From: Candidatus Latescibacterota bacterium
GTDB lineage: Bacteria; Latescibacterota; UBA2968; GCA-2709665
Reading direction: 5' to 3'
Length of the DNA: 64,000 nucleotides
Assembly: GCA_965237675.1 (NCBI GenBank)
Contig: OZ250150.1
Location: 224,001-288,000, forward strand
Both the position numbers and the translations under genes were made by a program. Every line of letters begins with the position of its first letter. The first letter of the stretch is position 1. A model generated the notes under the pieces. That model had not been told where the DNA came from and made no database searches. It saw only the letters and a list, made by a program, of their open reading frames with translations. Below are positions 42,511 through 61,890 of this stretch, piece by piece.

Positions 42511-42774
42511 GTATTTCCTCCCATTTAAACGATCAGATGTGAACACATCCAACGATCCGCATACCAGTGCGGGCGCGGCTCAGTCTCAGTACCCTTTCTT
42601 CATTCATGTGTACACACCACCTGCAACTGCTGACCGCACACGTGATATTATAGACCGCGCCGCCACATCAGCTGACCGAACGTGCCGAAACGGGCACAAA
42701 AAAATCCCGCTCCATCCCCTCGCCATTCAGTGATGAACTTTCCGGCGGCACCCCGATTAAAGGGTGCCGGGCAG

Positions 42775-43135: not shown

Positions 43136-43954
43136 TTATTGTCGCATCTGCTTCCCGGCCTCCCAGATCGGATAGCGTATGTCCGCCCGTTGCAACTCTC
43201 TCTGCAGCCACTGGCTGAACAATGTGTTGCGAATCTCGTCTGTGATGCGATCGTCCAGCGTGGCGGGATAGGTTTGCTGCATCATGAACAGCGCAAACCC
43301 GCCCGATGCCTTTTCGGGGCCGAAGATTTCACCTGGCGAGGCGGCAAAGAGGCGTGCGGCAATTCCCTTCGGCAACTGCTTGCGCCGGACGCGCCCCATA
43401 AACCCGCCGGCCGGGCGCGTGCGATCATCTTGGGAGAACTCCCGGGCCATTGCGCAGAAATCGGCGCCGTCCTCACTCGTCTGAAGTCCAATCTCGTCGA
43501 TAACGCCTCTGTCCCGATGGAAAATCCAGCAGACCTCCGCCTCGTCGAACTCCAGCGTGTGTTGCGCAAAATAGGGTTCGATCCCTCCCTCGGCGACTTT
43601 GTCGGAAAGCAGGCGCTCCAGCAGCCTGGCTTCGGCATCCGCCGCAACGTCCCGTAGTGTAATGCCTCGTGAAACGAGCCAGGCTTCCGTGTCTTCAACG
43701 CGTTCCAGCCGATTTTTGTACCGCCACCCATCCACATCGCGCTGGATGTCCTCCGGCTTCGTGCGAACACCCTCACGGATGGCAAGCTGGCGGATCAGTT
43801 CTCTTCGCGCGAACTCACCGAAAAAGCTGAGCTTGTCGGCAACACACATTTGACGGACTAAATGGTTCAACGAGACGTCGGCTCCGTTGACCCGAATCAC
43901 GGTAATATCCCGCTGCGCAATTTCCGAAGCGGCCTCTTCCGGACCCCGCATCAC
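43136..43954 (-). CDS. PpiC/parvulin-type peptidyl-prolyl isomerase associated with peptide export
   Basis: F.AMAREFSQD..T...GG.MG.V...LP......F...PGE..GP parvulin motif; ATGA overlap with HlyD. Confidence 0.85.
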   Translation of the reverse strand: MMRGPEEAASEIAQRDITVIRVNGADVSLNHLVRQMCVADKLSFFGEFARRELIRQLAIREGVRTKPEDIQRDVDGWRYKNRLERVEDTEAWLVSRGITLRDVAADAEARLLERLLSDKVAEGGIEPYFAQHTLEFDEAEVCWIFHRDRGVIDEIGLQTSEDGADFCAMAREFSQDDRTRPAGGFMGRVRRKQLPKGIAARLFAASPGEIFGPEKASGGFALFMMQQTYPATLDDRITDEIRNTLFSQWLQRELQRADIRYPIWEAGKQMRQ

Positions 43955-45351
43955 GTATCCCCCGGAATAGTAACCGACGTTTTCGTGGCATCATAGGTCG
44001 CCGACTCGTACAGCTTTCGCAAAGGACTGAGCAGCATCAGCAATACCGATTGGCGGTCCGTCATGATCTCCGCCGTCCCCTTCATGCCGAAGAGCAACGG
44101 CTTAGGTTGTCCTTTTACGACCATGGAGGTTTCTTCCAATTCAACAACACCTTTGAAGATCGGACCGACACGCTCGTCGATGACGGCATCGGGCGAGAGT
44201 TGTTTGAGCCATCCGCGTTTGATGCCGAAGTCCTGAAATGCAAATGCGTCGTACTTCAGTTTGACGATCTGTCCCGGTTTGAGCAGGCCCACGTCTTTGT
44301 TCAGCACCGTGAGTTCGGCAACCATGGGGACGGAGGCCGGCGCCACTGAAACCAGCGCCTGCCCCTTGCTGATCACCTGTCCGACCGCGTTCACCATCAC
44401 CTGGGTTACAATGCCGGGTTCGGGCGCCAGAATCAGATCCGATTCGGCTTCCAACTGTCGATCGACGCGTTTGCGCGCCTGGTCCAATTTCAATCGCGCG
44501 GTTTCATACGCGTGTTTCATCTGCGAGGCCTCACGCCCGTGGGCGATGCGAGCCTCGAGAATCTGCCGCTGGAGATCCTGGACAGCCGTTTCGTTCCTAT
44601 AGATTTCCGACATGCGTCCCGGAAGCGCCGCCAGGGCGTTTATGTACCGGACGCGGGCGCGGTTGATTTCCGCCCGGCTGATCAACTTGCGCTCAAACAG
44701 CATTTTCTGCTGAACGTACTCCTGTTTCAATTGGTCGATTTCAGCCTGACGAAAACCGATCTGCGCCTGCAACTCCGCATCCGAAGCGGCTTCCCCGGAT
44801 GACGCGGCATCGCCCAAATCGGCGCGATAGTCTCGCAGGGCATCCCGGTGTGCGTCCATAAACCGCTCCAGGACAGACAGTCGTTTCTCCAATGAGGCGA
44901 TCGTTTCCCGGGTCAATTGAGTCCTCTGCGGCAATACCTTTACGACATCGTACCTGGCCTTTTGGAACGCCATTTCCGCCTGTTCCAGTTCTCTCAGGTC
45001 TCCCCAGGTCTCCCATGACTTCAGCTTGAACAACAACTGGCCTTCCTCGATCCGATCGCCCTCCCTGATGCCGATATACTCAATTTCACCGTCTCGAAGG
45101 GCCTGCAGCGTTTTCACTTTCCCCAGAGGTACCAAACGGAAGGGCGCCGATGCCACCACGTCCACCTTGCCCCACCACGCCCAGACGACCGCAATTCCGA
45201 CAAATAGAAGAACGATATACAGCAACGCCCGACCCCAGAACGGCCTAAGAGACCCCACGAACGCGCGCATTTCTTCCGCGTCGTCGTCCCGGCCCGGGAG
45301 AATGACCGGCGTCGCTGCTGCCGACGGCTTTGTTAGTCCGGGTTCCGCCAT
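43951..45351 (-). CDS. HlyD-family membrane fusion protein
   Basis: N-terminal TM, V.EGD.I..GQ.L-type motif, long coiled coil, NKDVG..KPGQ.VKLK.DAF.F..FG, GM.GTAEI. Confidence 0.95.
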   Translation of the reverse strand: MAEPGLTKPSAAATPVILPGRDDDAEEMRAFVGSLRPFWGRALLYIVLLFVGIAVVWAWWGKVDVVASAPFRLVPLGKVKTLQALRDGEIEYIGIREGDRIEEGQLLFKLKSWETWGDLRELEQAEMAFQKARYDVVKVLPQRTQLTRETIASLEKRLSVLERFMDAHRDALRDYRADLGDAASSGEAASDAELQAQIGFRQAEIDQLKQEYVQQKMLFERKLISRAEINRARVRYINALAALPGRMSEIYRNETAVQDLQRQILEARIAHGREASQMKHAYETARLKLDQARKRVDRQLEAESDLILAPEPGIVTQVMVNAVGQVISKGQALVSVAPASVPMVAELTVLNKDVGLLKPGQIVKLKYDAFAFQDFGIKRGWLKQLSPDAVIDERVGPIFKGVVELEETSMVVKGQPKPLLFGMKGTAEIMTDRQSVLLMLLSPLRKLYESATYDATKTSVTIPGDT

Positions 45352-45378: not shown

Positions 45379-48300
45379 TCAAACCACCTGCAACTGCTGA
45401 CTGCACATGTGATAGTAAAGACCTCGGCGAACCATCAGTTCTTCGTGCGTGCCCATGTCGACGATGTGGCCGTTTTCCAGTACAACAATCGTGTCCGCAT
45501 CCCTCACGGTGCTCAGACGATGGGCAATAACGAGGGATGTGCGATTTTCCAGGAATAGCGCCAGGTTGGACTGAATCGCCCCTTCAGAGTCCGTATCCAG
45601 CGCATTTGTCGCTTCATCGAATATCAGTATTTTCGGATCGCGATACAGCGCCCGCGCGATCACGATCCGTTGCCGCTGCCCGCCGGACAATCCGATTCCC
45701 TGTTCGCCCACCTTCGTCTCATATCCCAAAGGCATATCGCTTACGAAATCGTGTACGCAGGCCAGTCCGGCAACTTCCATAAGCCTGTCCATGTCTGCGT
45801 CGGGTTCTCCGACCGCGATGTTCTCCGCAATGGTGCCGCTGAACAGAAACGAATCCTGCATGACCATTCCCACCTGGCGTCGCAGCCAGTGCGGGTCGAA
45901 ATCTCGCACATCCATCCCGTCCAGAAGCACACGCCCTTCCGAGGGATCGAACAGGCGGGGCACCAGCTTTACGAGCGTGGTCTTTCCCGCGCCACTGCGT
46001 CCGGCAATGGCGACCTTTTGGCCCGGTTCCAGTTCCAGCTTGATGTTGTTCAATACATAGGGTTCGTCGGATCCGACGCCGTACCTGAAAAATACCCCAT
46101 CAAACACCAGGCGGCCTTCAACCCGTTTCAGTCTCAGCCCGTGTCCGCGTTGGCGCGCATCCTCCATCTTCGATTCGTAGATGTCATTCAGCCTATCCAA
46201 TGCGACCCGGGCTTCCTGGACCTCCGGCCATATGCCGATCAGTCCCATAATGGGTCCCATCACATTGCCGATGAGGGCGTTGAACGCCATCAACTGCCCG
46301 ACCGACAACTCCCCTTCGATCACCAGGGAGGCGCCATACCACAATATCACCGTGGAACTCAACAGGTTGATCATACTTCCGCCCGCACCGAACAACATCT
46401 CCATTTTCAGCCGCCGAAACCCGATCTGAATTTCCTTCGTAAACTTGCCCTCCCACTGCCATCTCGTAGCGCGCTCGACGGCTTCGGCTTTCACCACGTC
46501 AATGCCATGCAGCGAATCGATCAGGACAGACGACTGTTCCGCGCGGGCAAGAAAAGCGCGCTGGCTGAAGGACTTCAGAATCGGGGTGTAGATCAGCGTC
46601 AACCCCACGGACGGCGGCACGAATATCAACATCACGAGCGTCAACTCCCAATTGTAGTAGAACATCAGCCCGAGATAGACGAACAACATGATAAAGTCGA
46701 GTATCGCCGAGATGGTCGTGTCCGTAAACAGGCGCTGGATCGTGGCATTTTCCTCAAACCTCGTGGTCAGATCCCCCGTGCGGCGCAGCGCGAAAAACCG
46801 CATGGACAGGCCCAGCAGATGCCGATAGAACCGGGATAACATGGTCAGACTCAACCGGGCGCTCATATACCCGACCAAATACGCGCGCAACGTCGAGGTG
46901 CCCATTTGAAACAGCGCCACGACGACCATGCCCGCCAGCATCAGGTTCAAGAGATCCTCGTCGTGATGTACCAGCACCTGATCTACAATGGTCTGCGTGA
47001 AAATGGGCGAGGCAAGTCCGAACAGACTGAGCACCAGGGACGCCAGCAGAACCTCGACCAGAATGGCCGTATATGGCTTGATCAACGGGAAAAAACGTCT
47101 GAAGGAAGACCTGGAGGGTTCATTTTCCGCCACCTGATCCGTGTATTCCAGCAGCAGCGCCATGTTGGTCCAGCTTTTCTCGAACTCCGGACGCACCAAC
47201 CTGCGAATCCCTACGCCGGGATCCGCGATTTTCACATCCTTTTTCGTGATCTCGTACAACACCACGAAATGGTTGCCCTCCCAGTGCAAAATCGCCGGCA
47301 GTCCGGTCCGCATCAGCGCTTCATAGCCCGTGCGCACGCCCCTCGTGACGAACCCCAACGTCTCCGCCGCCTCGGCCAGCGCCGCCATCGACGTGCCCTC
47401 CCGCGACACGTTGCACATTTCGCGCAACCTGTTCAACCCGATCGGCATCTTGTAATACTTGCAGATCATCCCCAGACACGCCGCCCCGCAATCGGACTCG
47501 TCGTGCTGTTTTAGAAATGGAAAACGAAACGATGTGGGCGCTCTTTGTTCCTCTTCACCTTCCCCGGCGCTCACGACATTGGAAGCCGTGTCTTCTGATT
47601 CCTCGACACCCTGCCCCGGCGTCGATCGAGCCTGGACCCGGGCCCGAGATCCGCCAGGTCGAGACGGATCGAATGGAGGCCCGCCGGATTCCTGTTTCGA
47701 GTGCAATCGCCGTGCCATTTCCAGCAAGGACTCCAATGCAGGAATTGCATATTTGAGGCTATCAAAATCGTTTTTGTCCAAATAATAGATAATGCAATCG
47801 TTTTGACTGCGGATCGCCAGTGACTCGCCACCGGAAGACTCCGTATCCTGGAAGAAATCACCCGCACCCAGACTAAAGGTGCTGCCATCCTCGGCAACCC
47901 CTTCCAGAAGACCGCTGCCCACCAGATAAAACCGCCCGCCCGAACGACCGGGTTCCACAACCGTCGTTCCCTCCGCCACCTCTTCGCGCTTCAAACGCCC
48001 GAACAACTCCCGCATCGCGCCGCCATTCACTCCGCGGTTCAGATGCCGGGTAAAATTTCGATATGCGATATCCGCAACCTGATCCTGAAGATGGGCTTCC
48101 AGTTCCGGTTCTTTCTTCAACACCTTGAAGAATTCATCCCCGGACACCTCCAACACCCGGGAATCCTCAACCGCCCGCACTGTTGCCCGATGACCGCGCC
48201 CCGTCAACAGCGCCCCTTCGCCAAAGTGATCGCCGGCGTACAAAAACCCCACGGTTTCCGCCTGGGCATCCGCAATCTGCTTGATCACCCGCAATCGACC

Positions 48301-48450
48301 CGACTGAAGTATGCAGAAGACATCACCAGGTCCCCCTTGATCGAAGACGACCGACCCGAAAGGAAACCGGGCGGATTCTGACTGAATCGAATGTTGGGAA
48401 AAAAGGGAAGACACGTCCATTATTTGTAACCCTGCCAGAACATCGTACAA
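45379..48450 (-). CDS. Peptidase-containing ABC transporter (two cNMP-binding-like domains + C39 peptidase + TMD + NBD); start may be ATG 48420
   Basis: GDHFGE.ALL...R.ATVRA; QHDESDCGAAC, HWEGNHFVV and IADP (C39 triad); GRSGAGKT, LSGGQRQR, FDEATNALD, IAHRLST. Confidence 0.95.
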   Translation of the reverse strand: MYDVLAGLQIMDVSSLFSQHSIQSESARFPFGSVVFDQGGPGDVFCILQSGRLRVIKQIADAQAETVGFLYAGDHFGEGALLTGRGHRATVRAVEDSRVLEVSGDEFFKVLKKEPELEAHLQDQVADIAYRNFTRHLNRGVNGGAMRELFGRLKREEVAEGTTVVEPGRSGGRFYLVGSGLLEGVAEDGSTFSLGAGDFFQDTESSGGESLAIRSQNDCIIYYLDKNDFDSLKYAIPALESLLEMARRLHSKQESGGPPFDPSRPGGSRARVQARSTPGQGVEESEDTASNVVSAGEGEEEQRAPTSFRFPFLKQHDESDCGAACLGMICKYYKMPIGLNRLREMCNVSREGTSMAALAEAAETLGFVTRGVRTGYEALMRTGLPAILHWEGNHFVVLYEITKKDVKIADPGVGIRRLVRPEFEKSWTNMALLLEYTDQVAENEPSRSSFRRFFPLIKPYTAILVEVLLASLVLSLFGLASPIFTQTIVDQVLVHHDEDLLNLMLAGMVVVALFQMGTSTLRAYLVGYMSARLSLTMLSRFYRHLLGLSMRFFALRRTGDLTTRFEENATIQRLFTDTTISAILDFIMLFVYLGLMFYYNWELTLVMLIFVPPSVGLTLIYTPILKSFSQRAFLARAEQSSVLIDSLHGIDVVKAEAVERATRWQWEGKFTKEIQIGFRRLKMEMLFGAGGSMINLLSSTVILWYGASLVIEGELSVGQLMAFNALIGNVMGPIMGLIGIWPEVQEARVALDRLNDIYESKMEDARQRGHGLRLKRVEGRLVFDGVFFRYGVGSDEPYVLNNIKLELEPGQKVAIAGRSGAGKTTLVKLVPRLFDPSEGRVLLDGMDVRDFDPHWLRRQVGMVMQDSFLFSGTIAENIAVGEPDADMDRLMEVAGLACVHDFVSDMPLGYETKVGEQGIGLSGGQRQRIVIARALYRDPKILIFDEATNALDTDSEGAIQSNLALFLENRTSLVIAHRLSTVRDADTIVVLENGHIVDMGTHEELMVRRGLYYHMCSQQLQVV

Positions 48451-48721: not shown

Positions 48722-49534
48722 TTAGCCAGTGTCCGCGCATTTGTCCGCCGGCAAAATGCGGAAGCCGATTTCCGACGGGTGATCGCGAACGTATCTGTCA
48801 TTCTCAAATCGGCGGACCTTGATAAACAGCAGCACATCTCCGGCACAACTGCAGAACGTGAGACTGAAGAGCAATAGCGACCAGATCGCCGGGTCCCACC
48901 ACAGTATCAGACCGGCGGCCGGCGTGGTCACAATCAGGGGCAAGAGCGCGAACACCCGGTAAACACCCACCGTCATGGGTCTGTCGACGTGACAATACAA
49001 GGCCACCCATCGCCTGAAGATTCCGAAGTGCAGCGATTGAATTGGAATCTTACCCCAGCACAGGGCGGCAAGACCGTGGAGTGCTTCGTGGAAGACATAG
49101 AAGGCGATCAGGTATCCTGGAAACTTCAGTAAGTCGTTGAACATCAGACGCATATCGATTTCCCGTGACAAGGCATCTCCCGCCAGGATACCACTTGCAA
49201 ACGCAGTCCAGAACATGAGCATGAAAATTATGCCCACATCTTCTATATCCAGACCCACATCTATAGGTTTCTGCGCGTTGTTGCGATCCTCTTCCCCTGT
49301 TCCCGATGTGAAGACATCGCGTATGATCGACACGAATCTGTCGCCATACGCACAGAGCGCCTTTCGTGACATCAAAAAGTACATCGACATGCCAGTTAGG
49401 ACGCCAATCACTATCGCATAGTCAAGATCAAGTAAGTACCTGAGGATGAGCATGGCCGGCGCTACGGATAGCATCCCAAACAATGCGGCAGCGACAATCA
49501 GCCGTTTCCACGTGTTTCCGAGACAGGCGTACAT
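48722..49534 (-). CDS. DUF3267-like membrane metalloprotease (HExxH)
   Basis: GGAGG RBS + ATG 49534; several TM helices; FHEALHGL, LYCH, ALLP, AGD..., DHPSEIG. Confidence 0.8.
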   Translation of the reverse strand: MYACLGNTWKRLIVAAALFGMLSVAPAMLILRYLLDLDYAIVIGVLTGMSMYFLMSRKALCAYGDRFVSIIRDVFTSGTGEEDRNNAQKPIDVGLDIEDVGIIFMLMFWTAFASGILAGDALSREIDMRLMFNDLLKFPGYLIAFYVFHEALHGLAALCWGKIPIQSLHFGIFRRWVALYCHVDRPMTVGVYRVFALLPLIVTTPAAGLILWWDPAIWSLLLFSLTFCSCAGDVLLFIKVRRFENDRYVRDHPSEIGFRILPADKCADTG

Positions 49535-49640
49535 CAAACAGGACCTCCGTTCATGGTTCCATTGCCCTTTTTGAGGGGACGGAAAGGGGCGCGTACCGTA
49601 AATTGCTCGGACCGAGAGGCCAGATACAATCGACCAGCGT

Positions 49641-50495
49641 CTACCGGTCATCACTTGCAGCATCTGGCGCCACAAGTCCGTCCGTGGTGTCGGGTTGGGT
49701 GCTGTTCGAGACGTGGTAAAACCACCACAATCCAAGAGATGCCACAATTGCCCCCGCTGCACTCCACCACCACGGATTAGAGGTCACAACATTAAGGTCT
49801 TCTGCAACACGGAAAAAAGGAATGTCAAAGTGTTGGATGGTCACTGAGACGAAATTATGCAATGCGTGTGCGACAAGCGCGGGCCACAAAGATCCCGTGA
49901 GGATAACCCACCAGGCAAATACGAGACCCCATATAAGGGCCGGCGGAAGTTGCCAGGGGTTCAGATGCCCCACACCGAACAGTATCGCTGACCAGACAAT
50001 CGCGTAGATGCGGGTATAATTCGCCAGCAGACCACATAAAATGACACCTCTAAAAAGCAACTCTTCGATCAACGGTGCTACGAAAACTGCCACGAACAAG
50101 GCTGCCGAATAGGTTGTCTTGCGACCGGCCGTCGATTGAAAGACCTCTTGAAAAAAATCAGACATTGGAATTAGGAATGTGACGACCTTGTCCAATTCAT
50201 CAAGGACCACCACCATGCCAGCCACCGTTATTGCAACGCAGGGCCATACTCGCCAATCAAAGTCTATTCTCATGAGTTGCGATACATCATTCCACGATCG
50301 ATCAGTGCGACGAAAAATCCATATTAGAAGGAGAAGGAAAACTGCCAGTTGTAGTATACCGATCAGGAGGTTTTCCTCGTGCAAACGCTCGCCATAGGTG
50401 AGCCGTACAATACCGATGAGCACTCCCAAACCGACTTGAATCAGAATGTACAAGACCAGCAACCAAATCGCCTGTTTCAGATTCGGAAACACCAT
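49641..50495 (-). CDS. CPBP/Abi intramembrane protease, copy 4
   Basis: EELLFRG, FGVGH, HALHN. Confidence 0.92.
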   Translation of the reverse strand: MVFPNLKQAIWLLVLYILIQVGLGVLIGIVRLTYGERLHEENLLIGILQLAVFLLLLIWIFRRTDRSWNDVSQLMRIDFDWRVWPCVAITVAGMVVVLDELDKVVTFLIPMSDFFQEVFQSTAGRKTTYSAALFVAVFVAPLIEELLFRGVILCGLLANYTRIYAIVWSAILFGVGHLNPWQLPPALIWGLVFAWWVILTGSLWPALVAHALHNFVSVTIQHFDIPFFRVAEDLNVVTSNPWWWSAAGAIVASLGLWWFYHVSNSTQPDTTDGLVAPDAASDDR

Positions 50496-50743: not shown

Positions 50744-51586
50744 TCATTCGCCATCTGGCGCCACGACTCCGTCCGGGGTAACGGGCTGTCTGCCGTTTGT
50801 AGCCAGGTAAAACCACGACAGTCCAGTCGCAGCTATTACTGCCCCCGCTGCACTCCACCACCACGGATTGAAAGACACAACATTCAGGTCTTCCGAAACC
50901 GCGAAATATGGAATTTCAAAGTGCACAATTGTCGCGAAAATGAAGTTGTTCAAAGCGTGCCCAACAAGCGCGGGCCATAAAGATCCCGTCCTGATAACCC
51001 ACCAGCCCAATACCAGGCCACCTATCAGGGAAGCCGGAATTTGCCAGGGGTTCAGATGACTCACGCTAAACAGTATCGATGACCAGATAATCGCGTATGT
51101 CCTGGAATAATTCGACAGCAGGCCACTCAAGACAACACCTCTAAAGAGCAACTCTTCGACATATGGTGCGACAACGGCTCCCCGGAACAGGGCAGATGGA
51201 TAGGATGTTCCGCGCCCGAGCGTTGTATGGAAGATCACCTGCATAGATTCCGGTATTGGAAATCCGCATACTACGGCTTTGTTCAATTCAAAAAGAACCA
51301 TCACCGTGCCGGCTATCGATATTGCAACGCAGGCCCATATGCGCCAATCGAAGTTTGTTTTCGCAGGTTGCAAGAGACTTACCCACCGTCGATCCGTACG
51401 ACGGGAAATGTATGACAAAATCAGAAGAAAAATCCCGAATACCAAGAGCCCCATCGCATAGTTGTTATGCTCAAGGGACTCGCCACTGATAAGTTGCACA
51501 ACGTCGATGAATATTCCCATGACCACTTCCATCAGGATGAGCAGGGCTAACACCCAACAGGCCTGCCTCAAGTTCGGATACGCCAT
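50744..51586 (-). CDS. CPBP/Abi intramembrane protease, copy 5
   Basis: EELLFRG, FSVSH, HALNN. Confidence 0.92.
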   Translation of the reverse strand: MAYPNLRQACWVLALLILMEVVMGIFIDVVQLISGESLEHNNYAMGLLVFGIFLLILSYISRRTDRRWVSLLQPAKTNFDWRIWACVAISIAGTVMVLFELNKAVVCGFPIPESMQVIFHTTLGRGTSYPSALFRGAVVAPYVEELLFRGVVLSGLLSNYSRTYAIIWSSILFSVSHLNPWQIPASLIGGLVLGWWVIRTGSLWPALVGHALNNFIFATIVHFEIPYFAVSEDLNVVSFNPWWWSAAGAVIAATGLSWFYLATNGRQPVTPDGVVAPDGE

Positions 51587-51665
51587 TTCAATTCCCTTTT
51601 TTGACCTTCAAACCTACGGGGTAGCGGTACTTCAGAGTACCGCGATCAGCCCATCCGCATTTTCC

Positions 51666-51701
51666 GGGATAGGAGCACGAATTGCAGAATGCTCCTATCC
51701 C
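51666..51701 (-). terminator. Perfect 12-bp hairpin downstream of the precursor cassette (terminator or mRNA-stabilising stem)
   Basis: gggataggagca-N12-tgctcctatccc; no clear U-tract. Confidence 0.5.
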
Positions 51702-51732
51702 AGTATTCAACACGAGGTTCGCCTACATTATT

Positions 51733-52011
51733 CTATCGCTTGCAGCAGCAACAACTGCAACAGCTTTGGTGGTTGGACGGTTTCTTGTTGTCGTTCGATG
51801 TCACCTCAGCCACAGTCACACCGGTGGCAACGCCTGTTATATACGTGAGAACCTGCTTGCCAACTTCGATGGCAATTCGTACCCAATTGCCACCGAGTGT
51901 TTCTCCCATTTGTCTACGATCGAGCAATTCTTCGCGCCGATGCAAAGGGCTGCAGGTTACAACCATGTTACCAGCATCTGTCGCCATCGGATTGGCCAAA
52001 GCATGAGTCAT
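51733..52011 (-). CDS. Double-glycine-leader precursor peptide A4 (92 aa; 41-aa leader, 51-aa core ending SCCSCCCCKR)
   Basis: AGGAGG RBS; leader ...VVTCSPLHRREELLDRRQMGETLGG homologous to neighbouring leaders. Confidence 0.85.
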   Translation of the reverse strand: MTHALANPMATDAGNMVVTCSPLHRREELLDRRQMGETLGGNWVRIAIEVGKQVLTYITGVATGVTVAEVTSNDNKKPSNHQSCCSCCCCKR

Positions 52012-52476
52012 GAAGTCCTCCTGGAGAATTGATGGTATTAAACGATGTTCGACAATAGGGTGTGCAAACGATTGCAACAAGAGGGATTGGTTCCCTCAAA
52101 GTTAGGGGTTGTAAGGATTTCACTAAATATTCAACGACAAGTCACATCGCGCGCAGGTTCGATTCCATTTCCGGTCTGTCGAAGGCAGCCCATAGAAAAT
52201 CGCTCCGTCGTTAACTTAACCCGCTCGGCCATTTTAATACGCCCTTTCTCGACCGCTTCAGTGAGGCGCAAACAGGTTCCGTTCTACGATGTCCCACGAA
52301 CCTTCAGCAACTCGCTGAGATGTTGGTTTGCGGACGATTTTTCTCGGCTTCGGCAAGATATCAACACAGCGGACGTGAAGAACGAGCATGTTGAAAGTTC
52401 AGTTCGGAACGGCGGCTGTGGAGAACCCCGGAAGAACGGCTATGCAACAGACTACTTCCGCTGCTGGATTCAGCCT

Positions 52477-52683
52477 TCAACGAGGTCTGGCCAAGTGCTC
52501 GATAACTTCAGCGACAAGTCGTATGGCAAAACCCACGTATCGACCGAGTCGGTCATTTCCTGGAAAAACAAGCCCACCAGAGGCATGCATCATCTCACGA
52601 TGCGCCAGTTCCATCTCCCGGCCGGGGAGTTGGGCACAGGTCACGGAAACCTGGCCTCGTCTTGAGGGAAATCGATCGCTCAT
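52477..52683 (-). CDS. Double-glycine-leader precursor peptide A3 (68 aa; 37-aa leader, 31-aa core)
   Basis: AAAGGAGGTGA RBS; ...VTCAQLPGREMELAHREMMHASGG|LVFPGNDRLGRYVGFAIRLVAEVIEHLARPR. Confidence 0.85.
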   Translation of the reverse strand: MSDRFPSRRGQVSVTCAQLPGREMELAHREMMHASGGLVFPGNDRLGRYVGFAIRLVAEVIEHLARPR

Positions 52684-52846
52684 TTCATCACCTCCTTTCT
52701 TTGACATCGCAGCGATGCGCCGGGATGTCTTGTGGGCTTCGCCGCGAAATCAGGGAAGTCCGCGGTGAAAAGTTGAAGACTCAGTTCGAAATGTCGACAG
52801 GAGAGATCGCCAGGAAAAACGGCTTTCCGCCCGGTCAGCCCCAATA

Positions 52847-53050
52847 TCAGTTCCCGTCGTCGAAATAATCTACGATGGCCTCTGCAACTAACTTGGCGAC
52901 TGCTAGGATCACGATGCTTGGTCCAAAGGGTAAAACGAACCCTCCCGCCGCATTCTCCATCTCGCGGCGCGCCAGTCCAATTTCACGGCCAGGGAGTTGG
53001 GAACAGATCACGGCAGCCTGCGCTGGAGTCGATTGAATTAGATCCGTCAT
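52847..53050 (-). CDS. Double-glycine-leader precursor peptide A2 (67 aa; 37-aa leader, 30-aa core)
   Basis: AAGGAGGTGA RBS; ...VICSQLPGREIGLARREMENAAGG|FVLPFGPSIVILAVAKLVAEAIVDYFDDGN. Confidence 0.85.
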   Translation of the reverse strand: MTDLIQSTPAQAAVICSQLPGREIGLARREMENAAGGFVLPFGPSIVILAVAKLVAEAIVDYFDDGN

Positions 53051-53199
53051 TTCGTCACCTCCTTCCTCTTTGGGTCTCAGCGATACTCAGATGCATCCCT
53101 TAGCGCTAATTTGATGAGTCCATATACCTCTGCGCGAATGAATAGACGGACACATTTGGACCATCAAGGGCCACTTCTGGATGCGATATTGCTTGATGG

Positions 53200-53403
53200 C
53201 TACAGTACCGTAGACGGAACGTCGGGTTCAGGTAATTTCACGCCGAATAACTCAGCGATTAATCTTCGGAGGAGGCGCCCAAGCCCGGCGTCTCCACCGG
53301 AGATACGTGCGATCTGCCCGGCGGTCAAGTCTTCCGTCTGAATGGGTAACCGAGCCGGAATTCCGGACGAGTCCACAGGGCTTATTTCAATTCGTCTGGT
53401 CAT
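53200..53403 (-). CDS. Double-glycine-leader precursor peptide A1 (67 aa; 37-aa leader, 30-aa core)
   Basis: AAAGGAGGTGA RBS; ...RLPIQTEDLTAGQIARISGG|DAGLGRLLRRLIAELFGVKLPEPDVPSTVL. Confidence 0.82.
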   Translation of the reverse strand: MTRRIEISPVDSSGIPARLPIQTEDLTAGQIARISGGDAGLGRLLRRLIAELFGVKLPEPDVPSTVL

Positions 53404-53631
53404 TTCTTTCACCTCCTTTCGTCAACATCCCAGCGATATCCAATCAATCTCCATTTTCTCTGATCAGGTAGCCGGATGCACATCGCTGAAATGCCGTGAT
53501 GCCCGAAGCGTTTTGTATGCCTTTTTCTGATCGCGGCACACGCCCCATTGGGGCGGCTTCGGCTGTGAGTCAACGGAAACTTCGTGACAAGGGACGCGGT
53601 TGGTCCCTCAATCCGTCGACGCATTGGACTC

Positions 53632-53646
53632 GCAAGGATTGTGCCA
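53632..53646 (-). promoter_or_regulatory. sigma54 (-24/-12) promoter upstream of the precursor cassette
   Basis: TGGCAC-AATCC-TTGC on the minus strand, matching the TGGCAC-N5-TTGC consensus. Confidence 0.7.
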
Positions 53647-54004
53647 CTCCCAGTACCCCTGGGCATAACTGTCTGGCTTGCAAACGCGGATTTATTTTTG
53701 AACTGTTGGCAAGTAGCCGTGGCACGGCTGGTTCCTGAATAATGTGTTCCACTCTGCGTCATTCAGATGAAACTTTGTTGCATTTTGCGCGGCGCCGAAC
53801 GAACCCGGAAGCGTTGCAACAAAAAAAACACCGGTGACAAGAGCCACCGATGTTCGATCCAACAAGAAACTTCAGATGGGTAATTTCAGCCCGCGCTCGG
53901 CGGGCAAGCACGCGAAGGGTATTTGGTCAACAAGGCTGCTTTATTCGCGAATCAATCATCTTCCCCGCGCACAATGGCTTGTCGAGCCCTTGAGGAATCG
54001 TGAA

Positions 54005-54309
54005 GGTGGGGCAGACATTCCTGTCTGCCCTTCTCATTGTCCTTTTGCCGGAATGCAGACAGAAGAAAGGCTTGCGCCGCCACTATAGAACCAATACTCG
54101 GGATGGCGCTTGAGCCACAGCTTACGCGCTTCTTGGAAGGCACGGCGTTTGTCCCTGGGGGATCGCGTCAGCCAGGCGAAAGGTGATCCAATAGACAGCG
54201 CCGTCCTACTTCCAGTGGGGAAGACGGCGGCGAGTTTTGGCGTTCCCGGACACAGCATTCTGAGATTTCGGTTTGCTGTATATGAGCAGACAAGAATGCC
54301 TGCTCCACC
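54005..54309 (-). pseudogene. REP-associated tyrosine transposase (RAYT) relic flanked by inverted REP hairpins
   Basis: Minus frame reads TRRRLPHWK*DGAVYWITFRLADAIP (internal stop, then frameshift and truncation); REPs ggtggggcagacattcctgtctgccc (54005-54030) and an inverse copy (54284-54309). Confidence 0.75.
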
Positions 54310-54728
54310 TTTTCAAGCTTTTGTTCGAAGTATCGCTTGAGGGCATCAACCATCCGAGACAAACCGCCCTGTACTTGCTTCCGCCTCCCGAAACAGCAAG
54401 GCGCCATTGTCTCCTTTGCGCGTGCGGTGACGCAAAGGCAGACCGGTCGTCACCGTCAAATGCGAGCGGGAAACCGCTGGCATCCGCGAAGCGACGGCGC
54501 CTGGCTCTATCGTTCCGATAACGCCATCGAATGCCGCCGCTCGCTTTGACGTATTTCCACGAAAGACGTCCCGTTACAGTTGCCGAGGTTCCGAGATATC
54601 GTTAAACTTGGTAACGTCGTCGTTGAACGTTCCGCGGAACGCCAATGGGATGAGGATAACGAAGTGATAGGGCCCCGTAGCGTAAGCCGGGACCGCGTAA
54701 ATCCACCACCAGCAACCAATCGACATCT

Positions 54729-55172
54729 ATGCAACGATACGGAAAATTCCTGTCTCCGACATTCGTCAAATTCGTGCTGACCGGTCTCTCGGGAGTGTTC
54801 GTCAATCTCGGTTCGTTTCAGCTGTTGCTCAGTCTAGGCGTGCACGAATTGCTGGCGTCGCCGATTGCGATTGAACTGTCGATTATCTCGAATTTTCTGC
54901 TGAACAACTACTGGACCTTCAGCGACCGCGCGTTGTCCGGAAAGAAGCGCGTACGGGGTTTGAAATATCACCTCGTTACCCTGTTTACGCTTATGCTGAG
55001 CTATGGCACGTTCGTGTTGCTTTCCTTCCTTTTTCCCGCGGTACCACTCGTGATTTGGCAGGGCTGCGCGATTGCCCCGGCCGGTTTATTCAACTATTCC
55101 GTCAATTCCCTATGGACGTTTCGCGACGTGACCCTCGATCGGGCGGGAAACAGCGAGGACGGCGCCCAATGA
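54729..55172 (+). CDS. GtrA family protein
   Basis: KFVLTGLSGVFVNL, NFLLNNYWTF, FNYSVNSLWTF; four TM helices. Confidence 0.9.
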   Translation: MQRYGKFLSPTFVKFVLTGLSGVFVNLGSFQLLLSLGVHELLASPIAIELSIISNFLLNNYWTFSDRALSGKKRVRGLKYHLVTLFTLMLSYGTFVLLSFLFPAVPLVIWQGCAIAPAGLFNYSVNSLWTFRDVTLDRAGNSEDGAQ

Positions 55173-57250
55173 ATCGCGTGAATGCCATAAATAAAGGTTT
55201 TGAATCAATCCGCGATGGCACCGCTCTGGTTGCGTCCATTGTCGCGCCGCTCCTGCTTTACGTGCTGACGATGCCGCGCACCGTTGTTCTGGAAGACGAC
55301 GGGTTGTTTCTGATGGCAGGGGCGCACCTGGGCGTGGCCCATCCACCGGGATATCCGCTCTATACGCTCATTGTCTATCTCTTCACACAATTGCCCTTCG
55401 GCAGCGTCGCCTTCCTCGGCCATTTATCCAGTGCGGTACTGGGCGCGCTCGCGTGCGGTTGCGTTTATATTTGCGGCCGTCTGACAGGCGCCTCGTCGAT
55501 TCCGGCCCTGACCGCCGCGTGGCTGTTTGCCGCCTCCGAGCATTTCTGGTCTCAGGCCATTGTCACCGAGGTCTATACGCTCAATGCGCTGTTTTTCTTC
55601 GGACTCTACGTGCTGCTCTTGTTCGGCATCCGCCAGCCGCACCGAAACGGCATCTGGATTGCCGCGGCTGCGGCCTACGGATTGAGTCTCGCCAATCACC
55701 TGCCCCTGACAGTGCTGTCAACGCCGGGTTTGATCCTGCTGGTCTTTGCCGTTCGGCGCACAGTATATAGGAAACTCCCTCTGCTCCTGGCCATTCTCGT
55801 GTGCTGCGCGGCTTTTCCATATATCTGGATGATCTGGAGGTCGCACCATGAAATACTGATTAATTTCTACGGCCCTATCGATACAATTAAGGAAGTCTGG
55901 TTCTACGTCAGCCGGCAGGGGTACGTCGACGTCGATACCAGCCCCAGCGCGGGATGGGATGACCGGTTCAAGTTCATGCAGTGGCTTGGCAACGAGTCTT
56001 TGTGGCAATTGACGCTGCCGGGATTTGCCTTGTCGGTGTTCGGCCTGGTCGTTCTGTTTCGCAAGCGGCAGATCGCATTTGCGGCATCGGGATTGCTGGT
56101 CTTTTTGGGAAATAGTATTGTGTTGATCCTCCTGCTGCGCTTCGATTTCGACGATTTCCAGGTTGCGGTGTTTCGTCCCTATTCGCTGTCGTGTTACGCC
56201 ATCCAGGCAATATGGCTGGGCATTGGTCTTCACGTTGTCTATTCCTGGTTGGCAAGGAGCTTCTCCTCCAGGACGGTCCGGCAACCGAAAGTCAGAATCG
56301 GTGCGGCATCGCTGGCCGGCCTCGCGTTAGTCTGTTGGTCCGTGAATTCGCACTGGCGGGCAAACGACAGGGCCGATAGCGACTTTGCCGAGCGCTACAA
56401 TGAAATGGTGATGGACCTCGTGCCGGAAGATGGGGTCCTGTTCGTATTCGGAGATCCAACCGGCCACGTCGGCTACTATCGATACGTCGAAAACCGACGT
56501 CCGGACGTCACGCTGTACAATCTGCAGGGACTCGTATTTGGCACGCGCCTCTTCAGTCCGTTTATGTCCGCTGCGTCACGGAAAGAGACCCTGGAAAAAT
56601 TCGTCGACTCGACCGAACGCGCGCTCTTTTTTCCACTTGATGTCGATATCTATCCCGAACGTGAACAATGGATTTATGGCTTTCTTCTGCAGACCGCCAG
56701 AGGTGGCAAGCCGGGGACGATAAAGCTGAAGCGCCACCCACGCGGCGAGGAGTTCTTCGTACACCTCATCAACCGGCAGCCCATCGATCGCTGGGAGCGC
56801 GTCAGGCGCAACGAATTGCTGTTTCAATATGGGCAATACCTGGGATTGATCCATTTTACGGGCCACCCGCTACGCGATCAAGTACAGGACCTGCTCCAAC
56901 TCGCACATGGAACTTATGCAAGCCTCCTCGGCATGGCCACCGTCTTACTGGATAACGGAAACAGCTCAAACTGGGAGCAGGTCTCGGCATGGTTGGCCAG
57001 GGCGGAGACGCTGAAGCACGAAGCCCTGAAGAAGAAAACTCTCGCGGAGCTATACTACCTGAAAGGAAGGTTGCTACAGAAGCAGGATCAGACCAACGCG
57101 GCCATCGTGTCGTTCAGGAAGTCCCGAGATATATATCCCCATCCCCAGAACAAGGCGCTCGAAGCCCTCGACCAATACAGGATCGACTTCAAACGCGTCA
57201 ATCCGCCTGGTCCAAAGAGCTCCAAATCCGGCTTGCCCCTCCCCCGTTAA
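55169..57250 (+). CDS. DUF2723 (TMEM260-like GT-C glycosyltransferase) membrane protein with C-terminal TPR
   Basis: ATGA overlap with gtrA; EDDG.F, LGVAHPPGYPLY, FWSQA..TEVYTL, GLSLANH. Confidence 0.85.
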   Translation: MNRVNAINKGFESIRDGTALVASIVAPLLLYVLTMPRTVVLEDDGLFLMAGAHLGVAHPPGYPLYTLIVYLFTQLPFGSVAFLGHLSSAVLGALACGCVYICGRLTGASSIPALTAAWLFAASEHFWSQAIVTEVYTLNALFFFGLYVLLLFGIRQPHRNGIWIAAAAAYGLSLANHLPLTVLSTPGLILLVFAVRRTVYRKLPLLLAILVCCAAFPYIWMIWRSHHEILINFYGPIDTIKEVWFYVSRQGYVDVDTSPSAGWDDRFKFMQWLGNESLWQLTLPGFALSVFGLVVLFRKRQIAFAASGLLVFLGNSIVLILLLRFDFDDFQVAVFRPYSLSCYAIQAIWLGIGLHVVYSWLARSFSSRTVRQPKVRIGAASLAGLALVCWSVNSHWRANDRADSDFAERYNEMVMDLVPEDGVLFVFGDPTGHVGYYRYVENRRPDVTLYNLQGLVFGTRLFSPFMSAASRKETLEKFVDSTERALFFPLDVDIYPEREQWIYGFLLQTARGGKPGTIKLKRHPRGEEFFVHLINRQPIDRWERVRRNELLFQYGQYLGLIHFTGHPLRDQVQDLLQLAHGTYASLLGMATVLLDNGNSSNWEQVSAWLARAETLKHEALKKKTLAELYYLKGRLLQKQDQTNAAIVSFRKSRDIYPHPQNKALEALDQYRIDFKRVNPPGPKSSKSGLPLPR

Positions 57251-57569
57251 AAACCCGCTCTTGTTGCCCGTCCGACCCGCCAAACATACGCCGATAACAT
57301 ACCGGCACAATACGTAGAAGCATGGGAATTCAGCGAAGATCCCATGCCCGCATCGATGTGAAAGGAGACGCTTCTCTTCCTCAATAACCAGCAAGGATCC
57401 CCAAGTACGAAGGTGGCGGTTTCTCCGACTGCATCTGCTTGACATTGCTGGACATGGTGGGTATTTTCAAGAGGCAAGCGAAGAAAACCGCGACGCCATC
57501 GCTAATTTACTAGTTTAATCGTGCGCTCTTCGAGGGGTTGAAGCCAGTCAGGGCGTGGAGGTACATACA

Positions 57570-58022
57570 ATGAGAAATGTCGATATAGCCGTGTCCAGTA
57601 CGGATGAAAAACTCCAACTCGTCGTGGAAATCAAGAACAAACCAGGTGCGTCCGCCGAGTGGGTCACACTCATGCGGCGCAATTTGCTGGTGCATTCATT
57701 TTTGCCTTTGGCTCCATACTTCCTGCTTGTGCTCCCAGACTACCTCTATCTTTGGACGGAGGCCTCTACAGCAGATAATCTGGCAAAACCTGACTACAAA
57801 ATTGAGACCACCGAAATATTCGCACCCTATCTCAAATCCAACCAATCCCTTAATGATTTAAGTGGGTATGGGCTCGAATTGCTTACGATTTCGTGGCTGG
57901 AAGATTTACTTCATACAGACATGGGACGTGACTCGGTTGACAGAAATCTCCACTGGCTCTTTAACTCGGGGTTATATGAAGCAATTACAAACGGTTCACT
58001 TGAACTCGAAGCTACAACATGA
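57570..58022 (+). CDS. Hypothetical protein with PD-(D/E)xK-like motif
   Basis: GGAGG RBS; VDIAV...LVVEIK; ATGA overlap with the PIN gene. Confidence 0.65.
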   Translation: MRNVDIAVSSTDEKLQLVVEIKNKPGASAEWVTLMRRNLLVHSFLPLAPYFLLVLPDYLYLWTEASTADNLAKPDYKIETTEIFAPYLKSNQSLNDLSGYGLELLTISWLEDLLHTDMGRDSVDRNLHWLFNSGLYEAITNGSLELEATT

Positions 58023-58624
58023 TTGTGTATTTGGAGTCAAATTTCGTTCTTGAACTTGCTTTTCTTCAAGCCGAGCATGAAAATTGCTCGGCACTTTTGC
58101 GTCTATCGCAATTGGGGAAGATTCGCTTGGTATTACCCGCCTTCAGTATTGGTGAACCGTACGAAACGTGGGTGCGCCGCTCGAAGCGAAGACGAGAGAT
58201 TCACGAGGACCTTACATCGGCCATTCGAGAACTCTCTCGTTCAAGTCCTTACGAGGGGGCATCCGAACATTTCCACGAACTCACCAGCATATTGATCCGC
58301 AGTGGTGAAGAAGAGAAGCGCCGGCTGGATGAAACTCTGGAAAAAATCTTACAGACCGTTGAAGTCGTACCGGTAGGATTAAGTATTATCAGAGCCGCGA
58401 TAAATTACCAAAAGAAGCTTTACCTTTCGCCACAAGACTCGATAGTTTTTGCTTCGATTCTCGATCATCTGAATACAGCGTCCCCGGAGCCTTGCTGTTT
58501 CATCACCAAGAATTCCAAGGATTTCGCGAATCCTGATATTGAAAACGAATTGACCGTGAACAATTGCAAGCTGCTGACAAAATTCGCGGATGGCGTGGGG
58601 TATGTCGGAAGTCAGTTGGGGTAA
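58019..58624 (+). CDS. PIN-domain protein (DUF4935-like)
   Basis: IVYLESNFV, SIGE, LSPQDSIVFAS, FITKNSKDF. Confidence 0.8.
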   Translation: MIVYLESNFVLELAFLQAEHENCSALLRLSQLGKIRLVLPAFSIGEPYETWVRRSKRRREIHEDLTSAIRELSRSSPYEGASEHFHELTSILIRSGEEEKRRLDETLEKILQTVEVVPVGLSIIRAAINYQKKLYLSPQDSIVFASILDHLNTASPEPCCFITKNSKDFANPDIENELTVNNCKLLTKFADGVGYVGSQLG

Positions 58625-59169: not shown

Positions 59170-59943
59170 TCAGATCTTCACGACTCGACAACAGAAAACC
59201 GGCCAAAAAAACTCGAAATCGTCATCACCTGAACGACGTATCCCGAACTCACTTCTGACATCCTGAGATGCGGCAGCGAAATCCCGATACAATCCCTCCG
59301 AGGCCGCCTCAGGTGTACCCGACCTGTTGACCCAATCCCAGAACGTCATGTCCACCTGCGTCGCGGCAGTATGGGTTATTTCAAAACCGGTGTCTGTCAC
59401 GTGCCTGCGCCACTCAGACGGTGTTGGCGCCGTTGCGTGCGAGGGATCCCGCGCCACTTCCACACGATGATGCCACGTAGCGACGGCGGCGTCCTCCGAT
59501 GTGGTCGTATCGCACAGCAGAAAGACGCCCCCGGGCCTCAACACCCGGTGGACTTCTGAAAGAAACTTCCCGATGTCCCGAAAATGGTGCGGTGCGGTCC
59601 GACAGGTGACCAGGTCAATGGATGCGTCCGGGTACGGAATATCGCTTGCATCGATCCTTTCGAAACGGACGTTTGCAATGCCTCGCCTGGCGGCGATTTT
59701 GCGGGCCTGGTCCAGCATGCCTTGCGCGATGTCAGAAGCCACGATTGTGTCGCAGAACCCGGCAACAGCGAACGCCGTAAAGCCGGGACCGGTGGCAATA
59801 TCCAGACCCAACGGGTAGCGTTCGAGGGATGCCCACTCCGTGAGGATGCGCAAACTCTCTCCAGACGAGTGCGCCTCGCTCACCGCGTATTTCGCCGCCT
59901 GGCGGTCGAACTGCTCCCCGGCCTCGGTCGATGTCATGTTCAA
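59170..59943 (-). CDS. Class I SAM-dependent methyltransferase
   Basis: LDIATGPG, PYPDASIDLV.CR.APHHF, RVLRPGG. Confidence 0.9.
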   Translation of the reverse strand: MNMTSTEAGEQFDRQAAKYAVSEAHSSGESLRILTEWASLERYPLGLDIATGPGFTAFAVAGFCDTIVASDIAQGMLDQARKIAARRGIANVRFERIDASDIPYPDASIDLVTCRTAPHHFRDIGKFLSEVHRVLRPGGVFLLCDTTTSEDAAVATWHHRVEVARDPSHATAPTPSEWRRHVTDTGFEITHTAATQVDMTFWDWVNRSGTPEAASEGLYRDFAAASQDVRSEFGIRRSGDDDFEFFWPVFCCRVVKI

Positions 59944-60036
59944 ATTTGTACCTTCATCGTGAAATCAAACGTCCGATCGATGGACACAGTTGCCACGGCT
60001 CATACGACGCTTCAAAATGCGTTGGCAGCCGACGCC

Positions 60037-60777
60037 TTACCGCACCGCATTCGAATACCAGCCCTTCCAGGCTGGTTTCCAACCCCGGAACAACGCGATA
60101 TATAACGGGTTGGTCCATAGCAGGATCTTCCACACCGGCCACTTGTCGAAGCGCCGGCAGGATGGTTTTACCCGCAGTTCTCCAATAAATCGGACTGTCT
60201 GACCGGTTGACCTAGCAAAGAAGTCGACGTCTTCGCCTATCCAGGCCCCCTCGTCGTAGCCGCCTGTTTGCTCGAAGACACATTTGCGACAGAATTGCGT
60301 GGCGCCCTGAACCATCCCCGTAACGCGACCGAACAGCCGCCAGGCTTGCAGATAGACCCGGATAGAGTAACGCCGTGGATGATAGTCGACGTCCACACCC
60401 CCTCCGACACATTTCGGATCGCCCATCGCCGTGCAAATCACCTGGAGAAGGGCGCACGGTACGACGACGTCCGCATCGATGAAAATGAGTACCTCCCCGG
60501 TGGCGTGGCGCGCGCCTGCGTTACGTGCCCGGGAGATGCTCTGTACCGGCTCGCGAACAACCGCCGCTCCCTTCGCTCGCGCGACGGCCGCGGTGGCATC
60601 CCTGCTGTTGTTGTCAACGACAATCGTCTCGACGTCTACGTCAGTACCCGCACGGACCATTTCTGCGGCATCATGGATCGAGTCCAGCGTCGCCGCGAGA
60701 TAGGCCTCCTCGTTGAAGGCGGGGATAATAACCGTCATCCGGAGACCGGAATGCTTCGCTTCATTGCCGACCGACAT
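60037..60777 (-). CDS. Glycosyltransferase family 2
   Basis: VIIPAFNEE, VVDNNS.D, ARNAGA, FIDAD, GGYDE...EDVDF. Confidence 0.88.
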   Translation of the reverse strand: MSVGNEAKHSGLRMTVIIPAFNEEAYLAATLDSIHDAAEMVRAGTDVDVETIVVDNNSRDATAAVARAKGAAVVREPVQSISRARNAGARHATGEVLIFIDADVVVPCALLQVICTAMGDPKCVGGGVDVDYHPRRYSIRVYLQAWRLFGRVTGMVQGATQFCRKCVFEQTGGYDEGAWIGEDVDFFARSTGQTVRFIGELRVKPSCRRFDKWPVWKILLWTNPLYIALFRGWKPAWKGWYSNAVR

Positions 60778-61802: not shown

Positions 61803-61890
61803 TCTAAATCCAACTGGGAGTCGGTGAGACGCGCCGAGGACTACACTCGGCAACTATGGTTCGTCTTTCAGGATATGTACACGGGCAAAG

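Follow-up and report, generated by a model that had tools for sequence, protein, structure and literature searches.

We describe a predicted peptide export locus from a Candidatus Latescibacterota bacterium (assembly GCA_965237675.1). The window is the whole stretch of DNA that was analysed: 64,000 nucleotides (nt) of contig OZ250150.1, positions 224,001 to 288,000 of the forward strand. It holds four tandem open reading frames (ORFs), here called A1 to A4, which share a leader ending in Gly-Gly and lie beside genes for a long peptidase-containing ATP-binding cassette transporter (PCAT), a HlyD-family adaptor, and a parvulin. We put the probability that these ORFs encode precursors of exported peptides, with a lineage-specific double-glycine leader that would be processed by the PCAT, at about three in four. 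Leader positions are counted backward from the predicted cleavage site, so that Gly-Gly occupies -2 and -1; core positions are counted forward from it.

The precursor array

The four precursor genes of the window are as follows.

53403..53200, minus strand: predicted precursor A1, 67 residues (37-residue leader ending in Gly-Gly, 30-residue core)
53050..52847, minus strand: predicted precursor A2, 67 residues (37-residue leader, 30-residue core)
52683..52477, minus strand: predicted precursor A3, 68 residues (37-residue leader, 31-residue core)
52011..51733, minus strand: predicted precursor A4, 92 residues (41-residue leader, 51-residue core)

The initial annotation, made from the letters alone, read these ORFs correctly in their main features. 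Gly-Gly stands at residues 36-37 of A1 to A3 (40-41 of A4) and Leu-Pro at 19-20 of A1 to A3; Leu -19, Leu -12, and Met or Ile at -7 are present in all four, and Cys -22 in A2 to A4. Its strong ribosome-binding sites (RBSs) are likewise there: on the reverse complement, an AGGAGG-type site precedes each of the four ATGs, AGGAGGTGA at 4-5 nt for A1 to A3 and AGGAGG at 5 nt for A4. The start of A3 is taken as its second ATG, the one with an RBS in front, which gives the length typical of the family.

The four members fall into subtypes. A1, in which Pro replaces Cys at -22, matches the profile built from the four peptides at E 2.1e-24 and has orthologues in same-genus loci. The A2 leader carries Cys -22, Leu -19, Pro -18, Arg -16, and Glu -15, followed by a hydrophobic and acidic core with Pro at +4. 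A4 has Pro -20 and Leu -19 without Pro -18, and its core combines a hydrophobic stretch with six Cys among the last nine residues (51733-51760); its orthologues retain a Cys-rich, basic C-terminus. Between A4 and A3, a related-strain DNA run has the 211-nt spacer (52033-52245) swapped for 209 other letters, with the flanking precursor genes kept. Promoter and terminator sites, scanned over 51400-54800, were no more numerous than in shuffled sequence.

Conservation and range of the leader

The four ORFs are conserved coding genes. The four-peptide profile finds a match in 53 of 61 related genomes at E<=1 (best E 2.5e-25 outside the genome itself), including 14/14 of the same genus (g1) and 21/21 of a genus in a second family (g6), usually in several tandem copies. 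Chance ORFs can be dismissed, since the genes are conserved across two families.

We aligned 43 leaders taken from 15 loci. No leader departs from Met 1, Leu -19, or the two Gly. The C-terminal half consists of Leu -12 (40/43), Glu or Gln at -8, Met or a similar residue at -7 (Met, Ile, Val, or Ala in 36/43; Thr in 7/43), a small or hydrophobic residue at -4 (Ala, Ile, Val, or Thr in 42/43), and Gly-Gly. The N-terminal half contains a second box, centred on the invariant Leu -19: Pro flanks this Leu in 42/43 leaders (at -18 in 38, at -20 in four of the remaining five), residue -22 is Cys in 29, Pro in 12, and Phe in two, and residue -16 is Arg, Gln, or Lys in 42/43. Conservation extends further upstream, to -36..-29, with Arg -34 in 28/43 and Pro -29 in 26/43. 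Cys -22 was also considered as a modification site and rejected: Pro or Phe takes its place in 14 leaders, and the A2 and A3 cores offer no Cys partner.

The leader has so far been found in one order of Latescibacterota. At E<=0.001, the 43-leader profile matches 42 of 168 genomes of the phylum, 41 of them among the 53 genomes of that order, the genome of the window included; the 115 genomes of other families yield one weak match (E 6.7e-4, covering 24 of 37 positions). Against 1.84 billion protein representatives, the same profile finds 61 proteins at E<=0.001. Of the 52 non-repeat matches, the 51 inspected are small proteins that match in a single stretch, with the leader at or near the N-terminus and nearly always an end of the Gly-Gly type; two coincide exactly with peptides from genera g2 and g4, and a divergent subtype has a 51%-identical relative in a g6 genome. 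The other nine (P0023, P0027, P0037, P0041, P0046, P0049, P0050, P0052, and P0054) are unrelated proteins built from 4-7 tandem copies of a repeat similar to the leader box, and they are a source of false positives for future leader models. Word-based protein search returned only four proteins, as the majority of these ORFs lack a gene call.

Catalogued leader models miss the family. The window peptides match no Pfam or NCBIfam family at E<=10, a threshold at which the HMMER filters already discard most matches above about E 0.1. None of six versions of the window peptides matches the double-glycine model TIGR01847 (bacteriocin_sig) at E<=10, and neither the window peptides nor the 43 leaders match the Nif11 (TIGR03798) or NHLP (TIGR03793) models at that threshold. 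One of the 43 leaders touches a graspetide target model (E 0.13) and another single one an irrelevant Pfam family (E 0.27). In the ESM Atlas, the clusters nearest to A2 contain precursors of the class IIb bacteriocin, lantibiotic, and ComC types; their scores of 0.85-0.87, being under 0.9, serve as leads only. The titles and opening lines of abstracts on Latescibacteria bacteriocins and on PCAT genome mining hold nothing on this leader.

The proposal of a new leader family is thus supported: profiles made from the leaders find homologues in much of the order and beside PCATs, and the leaders fall within none of the Nif11, NHLP, and class II leader models. The segment from -12 to -1 also agrees with the C39 recognition pattern (hydrophobic residues at -12, -7, and -4) that had been proposed for it, as that pattern is described in the available part of PMC10885120. 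The further suggestion of a precursor library stands in part. Several core types do follow one leader, and between core types the leader is 54-65% identical and the full length down to 41-45%. Core types are few, however, each is conserved between species, and they have a core motif in common; an A2 orthologue, for example, shows 68% leader identity and 64% identity along its full length.

The export cassette and neighbouring genes

After A4, the minus strand continues with two CPBP genes, a DUF3267 gene, the three export genes, and three further CPBP genes.

50744..51586, minus strand: CPBP (Rce1-like/Abi) membrane protein 1, Pfam PF02517 E 1.6e-21, a candidate for immunity or processing
49641..50495, minus strand: CPBP membrane protein 2, Pfam PF02517 E 4e-20
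48722..49762, minus strand: DUF3267 putative zincin membrane peptidase, Pfam PF11667 E 1.8e-14
45379..48450, minus strand: long PCAT, 1023 residues, with a cyclic nucleotide monophosphate (cNMP)-binding region (CAP_ED-like), a C39 peptidase, an ABC membrane domain, and an ATPase (Pfam)
43951..45351, minus strand: HlyD-family periplasmic adaptor, Pfam HlyD_3; TIGR01843 at 205.6 bits (cut-off 208.65)
43136..43951, minus strand: PrsA/SurA-like parvulin (PpiC), 271 residues, Pfam Rotamase E 1.4e-10
41683-42552, 40703-41530, and 39791-40618, minus strand: three more CPBP genes, downstream of the export genes, PF02517 E 2.5e-18, 1.6e-19, and 3.3e-16

The listed DUF3267 ORF overlaps the second CPBP gene and its orthologues have 201-304 residues, so its true start is probably internal.

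The PCAT carries a complete set of domains: cNMP_binding in two stretches (4.6e-27), Peptidase_C39 (9.2e-40, positions 2-130 of the 133 in the model), ABC_membrane, and ABC_tran. Its C39 domain has Cys321 in a D-C-G context and His394, which we take to be the catalytic residues. NCBIfam scores lie below every equivalog cut-off (TIGR03796 at 574 bits, cut-off 853). The parvulin scores 79.1 bits against TIGR04500 (PpiC-related peptide maturation), below the cut-off of 180, and a PDB profile search with it matches SurA and PrsA; its AlphaFold2 (AF2) model is poor, with a predicted local distance difference test (pLDDT) value of 55.7 and less than 50 in the parvulin domain. The window parvulin has no membrane segment, and neither it nor any of 20 parsed orthologues shows a signal peptide or a hydrophobic N-terminus; for lack of the last the protein is most likely cytoplasmic. 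TolC-like genes lie elsewhere in the genome (10 OEP matches in five open frames), with none in the window.

This arrangement recurs with the leader. A close homologue of the long PCAT, a peptide-cleaving export pump, lies within 12 kb of 49/56 arrays in the 61 related genomes, and a parvulin homologue within 15 kb of 46/57 arrays; most exceptions for either gene are on short contigs. The order of precursors, CPBP/DUF3267 genes (none in the g6 locus), long PCAT, and HlyD gene is held in five of six loci scanned, and the parvulin gene comes next in the two scanned loci that extend far enough. In one genome there are three arrays, each of which has a PCAT and a parvulin of its own.

Several further observations concern related cassettes and the surroundings of the array. 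In same-genus locus L037 (14480-19498), AbiJ-, GmrSD-, and SIR2-like defence genes come after what is left of the PCAT, a cNMP-binding fragment; the sole full PCAT of that genome is elsewhere. Loci L069 to L071 hold paralogous cassettes, with a PCAT 55-57% identical, two secreted M16 peptidases, and an acidic precursor of 183-199 residues whose leader retains Cys -22, Pro -20, and Leu -19. In the window, a plus-strand ORF of 155 residues without a Pfam match overlaps the start of a PIN_12 gene (57555-58624) and the two look like a toxin-antitoxin pair, which is also found near the array in L040. Two minus-strand genes with ThsB-type TIR-like domains (61293-61853 and 63248-63871) resemble a component of Thoeris-like defence.

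Glycosyltransferase history

In the sister genera, the precursors are preceded by glycosyltransferase (GT) genes. Locus L041 of g6 has two GT-B genes (Glyco_tran_28_C and Glycos_transf_1) that end just ahead of the first precursor; this GT28-like/GT4 pair is found upstream of 7/7 g6 arrays examined, including the three arrays of one genome, and at the g2 locus. At a g4 locus, the GT4 gene is reduced to its last 90 codons, beside an IS110 transposase. GT4 orthologues (E<=1e-60) are present in 21/21 genomes of g6, 2/2 of g2, and 1/1 of g11, and of the 36 GT4 copies, 34 have a leader match no more than 700 nt away, 33 of them within 250 nt and mostly at 53-65 nt. At the same threshold, there is none in the 14/14 same-genus genomes or in the genome of the window, where tblastn at E<=1e-20 also finds none.

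One trace of the GT4 gene is present ahead of A1.

53479..53544, minus strand: GT4 3'-end relic, 13 of 22 residues identical (tblastn) to residues 442-463 of the 467-residue L041 GT4

The match has E 0.009 when all loci are compared and 1e-05 for the 1.3-kb spacer alone. Its inferred end lies about 60 nt before the start of A1, which is the g6 spacing (intact GT4 genes of the sister genera stop about 55-65 nt ahead of the first precursor), and the relic occurs on the same strand and in the same place in 5/7 other same-genus loci. From the position of the GT pair and the presence of the relic, we therefore infer that the ancestral cassette very probably consisted of the GT28-like gene, the GT4 gene, one or more precursors, the PCAT, the HlyD gene, and the parvulin gene, and that the window's genus very probably lost the GTs and gained extra precursors and CPBP/DUF3267 genes. 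A trans-acting enzyme had been proposed as a partner of the leader: such enzymes are encoded directly upstream in the sister genera, in the form of the GT28-like/GT4 pair, but are missing from this genome.

The spacer upstream of A1 has features of its own. At about 53920-54450, where the GT genes would have been, it holds a dispersed repeat with dozens of partial copies genome-wide (blastn; 75-100% identity, 30-470 bp), over which DNA contigs pile up 60-300x. Diverging from the array are GtrA and TMEM260-like/PMT-like GT-C genes (54729-57250, plus strand; 59170-60777, minus strand), with a methyltransferase gene and a 246-residue GT2 gene nearby; the TMEM260-like gene is syntenic in 6/7 same-genus loci, three of which also have GtrA. 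These genes may form a periplasmic glycosylation module.

What reads the N-terminal leader box

Recognition by C39 domains is known to involve hydrophobic residues at -4, -7, and -12 and, in ComA, at -15 (PMC10885120, as far as the source was available). The box at -22 to -16 lies beyond that region, and it is about as well conserved as the C39 half: the mean information is 2.68 versus 2.70 bits per column in the genus without GTs and 3.16 versus 2.94 where GTs are present, a comparison between g1 and g6 that is confounded by sampling, with the subtype defined by Cys -22 and Pro -18. Four accounts of the box can be weighed.

First, the box may belong to a longer C39-recognition helix, for which it would supply the N-terminal cap and one more hydrophobic anchor, with no second partner. 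Leu -19 stands seven residues, or two helical turns, ahead of Leu -12, and residue -15 is polar here and hydrophobic in other leaders. The AF2 model of the precursor, made with 22 homologues, places the leader helix at residues 23-34 (-15..-4), so that it begins right after Leu-Pro-Gly-Arg. One PCAT serves three leader subtypes, and what these have in common is Leu -19 with its flanking Pro, the basic or polar -16, Leu -12, the -8/-7 pair, and Gly-Gly. However, the leader section of that model has low confidence (pLDDT ~50), and the conservation at -36..-29 reaches well past any helix cap. We consider this account possible, if on the unlikely side.

Second, the box may be a recognition element for the ancestral GT28-like/GT4 pair, in a leader-guided glycopeptide pathway, and persist in the window's genus for other reasons or through glycosylation by the GtrA/TMEM260-like module. 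The close spacing of GT4 copies and leader matches argues for it, as do the separate GT pair of each g6 array examined and of the g2 locus, the relic upstream of A1 and in other same-genus loci, and the somewhat higher conservation of the N-terminal half where GTs are present (3.16 versus 2.68 bits); GtrA and TMEM260-like genes also flank the window array. Against these stand the genomes of the window's genus, in which the GT4 orthologue is absent and the box is nonetheless as conserved as the C39 half. The difference in information may come from sampling and relatedness, glycosylation is hypothetical for every member, and within one genus the GtrA module may be syntenic by inheritance only. 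We hold this account only tentatively.

Third, these elements can be combined: the box would be a dedicated docking element, ancestrally read by the GT-B pair and kept because the retained parvulin or the cNMP-binding region of the PCAT also reads it. This is a rather doubtful proposal. If true, a new class of peptides, glycosylated and exported by PCATs, would have its founding leader here, in an uncultured phylum, and HetC-type long PCATs would gain their first defined substrates and a leader code.

Last and quite unlikely is that the box simply docks the parvulin suggested by the initial annotation, a cytoplasmic protein that would isomerise or hold Leu-Pro at -19/-18, or the cNMP-binding region of the PCAT, as a second partner beside C39: the box lies N-terminal to the region read by C39 and is equally conserved, Pro flanks Leu -19 almost throughout, the parvulin has no signal peptide and so could meet the leader, and it co-occurs with the leader (g1 14/14, g2 2/2, g4 1/1, g6 21/21, g11 1/1), but Pro -18 is missing from 5/43 leaders that share a cassette with Pro-bearing ones, the paralogous parvulin-bearing cassette of L071 has Ser at -18, the core Pro at +4 would be an equally good parvulin target, and the co-occurrence may reflect one inherited operon because related genomes are not independent. 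Complex prediction from the parvulin and precursor alignments scored 0.02 (mark 0.32), which speaks neither for nor against binding.

Role of the mature peptides

The cores form short helices of amphipathic or hydrophobic character. In the AF2 model of A2, the core helix spans residues 44-64 with pLDDT 75-92, and cores of the A2/A3 subtype have a near-invariant Pro at +4. Within the window's genus, the number and kind of CPBP/DUF3267 genes vary along with the peptide sets. CAAX/Abi proteins, in turn, recur in bacteriocin loci, according to the excerpts of the literature available, and they reportedly act in bacteriocin self-immunity, a role attributed to them by Kjos and colleagues. We favour, at roughly even odds, mature peptides that are bacteriocin-like with membrane-protein immunity, because the CPBP/DUF3267 sets vary with the peptides and CAAX/Abi proteins recur in such loci.

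Alternatively, the mature peptides could be signals or matrix components and not antimicrobials, roles proposed for HetC substrates and demonstrated for Synechococcus EbfG proteins. Cell differentiation involves long PCATs of this architecture (available part of PMC10986499), biofilm formation in the EbfG/PteB system involves double-glycine proteins and a PCAT (available part of PMC4997328), and immunity-like genes are not seen in the L041 cassette of a sister genus. The covariation of CPBP/DUF3267 genes with the peptides, in the style of toxin and immunity pairs, goes against a signal or matrix role, as do the helical character of the cores and the recurrence of CAAX/Abi proteins. We regard it as fairly unlikely.

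Proposed pathway

The C39 domain of the adjacent PCAT would cut behind Gly-Gly on the cytoplasmic side, and the ABC/HlyD pair, together with an unlinked TolC-like protein, would export cores of 30-51 residues. The cNMP-binding region may gate export through a small ligand, as reported for HetC, and the parvulin could work in the cytoplasm as a holdase or isomerase. Protection of the producer or trimming of the peptides would fall to the variable CPBP/DUF3267 genes. The cassette would derive from one with the GT28-like/GT4 pair ahead of the precursors, a pair that this genus appears to have lost. With the GT genes lost in the genus, export probably takes place without glycosylation in the cytoplasm, as for class II bacteriocins; the peptides of this genome are probably unmodified and bacteriocin-like.

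Transcription is weakly indicated: two metatranscriptomic libraries of a single study have contigs that overlie A4 (51776-52005), A3 (52477-52650), and A2 (52806-52986); the A3 contig differs at 11 positions and so comes from a related strain.

Several points weigh against the precursor reading or parts of it. Cleavage, export, and activity are predictions for all members. No curated double-glycine model reaches the leaders: TIGR01847 is touched by only 2/43, at E 0.14. Residue -15, hydrophobic in the ComA substrate motif, is Glu or Thr in these leaders. L037 keeps four precursors though its PCAT is reduced to a cNMP fragment of 209 residues. No CPBP or DUF3267 gene is present in the sister-genus locus L041, so the immunity reading is one for the window's genus alone. 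The divergent GtrA/TMEM260-like module beside the array may allow periplasmic modification. Finally, assembled RNA contigs from one study cannot show strand, transcript ends, or the absence of DNA, and parts of the array free of contigs are uninformative.

Significance

The combination of a long PCAT, a HlyD protein, and a parvulin is the commonest cyanobacterial "bacteriocin" cassette, HetC included, and its substrates are mostly unknown, according to the parts of the literature available. The Latescibacterota version has unmistakable tandem precursors under one leader, which makes it tractable for questions on the cargo of the pump, the role of the parvulin, and the reader of the box. Its tight pairing with two GT-B enzymes in the sister genera points to a possible new class of glycopeptides, and the clean loss of these enzymes in the window's genus offers a natural comparison. 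No cultured member of the phylum is named in the records; heterologous expression is thus a route to the peptides.

Comparison with known systems

The leaders resemble those of class II bacteriocins, competence peptides, and lanthipeptides (substrates of ComA, LahT, and PCAT1) in Gly-Gly (43/43), hydrophobic residues at -12, -7, and -4, and an acidic residue at -8. The locus also has the layout of double-glycine systems: tandem precursors, an adjacent C39-ABC exporter with a complete C39 domain, and a HlyD-type adaptor. Unlike known double-glycine leaders, these are longer (37-41 residues), carry a second box at -22..-15 and a polar -15, and give no score with TIGR01847 or Pfam leader models. 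Nif11 and NHLP precursors share the long conserved leader ending in Gly-Gly, several core types, and, among the closest exporter models, the NHLP-type TIGR03796; unlike them, the family has no TIGR03798 or TIGR03793 match at E<=10, and its leader is half as long.

The sister genera alone invite comparison with glycocins, which are bacteriocins carrying S- or O-linked sugar that have a leader of the double-glycine type and a PCAT, in that a GT gene appears to be co-transcribed with a Gly-Gly precursor and a PCAT. Known glycocin glycosyltransferases are of the GT2 type. Unlike these, the predicted sister-genus enzymes are GT-B (Glyco_tran_28_C and Glycos_transf_1), and the window has only a 22-codon GT4 relic.

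A close parallel is the group I cluster of cyanobacteria (Wang et al. 2011), which consists of a long PCAT with CAP_ED, a HlyD protein, and a SurA-like rotamase; according to the available part of PMC3140520, it is the most abundant type, and its clusters have on average 0.35 precursors that are recognised. The Nostoc protein HetC is a long PCAT of this kind, whose cNMP domain binds ppGpp in vitro and whose substrate is unidentified, as stated in the available part of PMC10986499. The window cassette has the same three genes with the same domain architecture as group I and HetC, to the extent that PMC3140520 was available, and the paralogous Latescibacterota cassette, in which two M16 peptidases accompany a distant member of the family, recalls group II as far as that group is described there. 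Unlike group I, the host belongs to Latescibacterota and not to the cyanobacteria, the precursors are clear and in tandem, and CPBP/DUF3267 genes, or the GT pair in the sister genera, are added. The locus thus joins a known export architecture to a new leader; in relatives, its pairing with glycosyltransferases is new as well.

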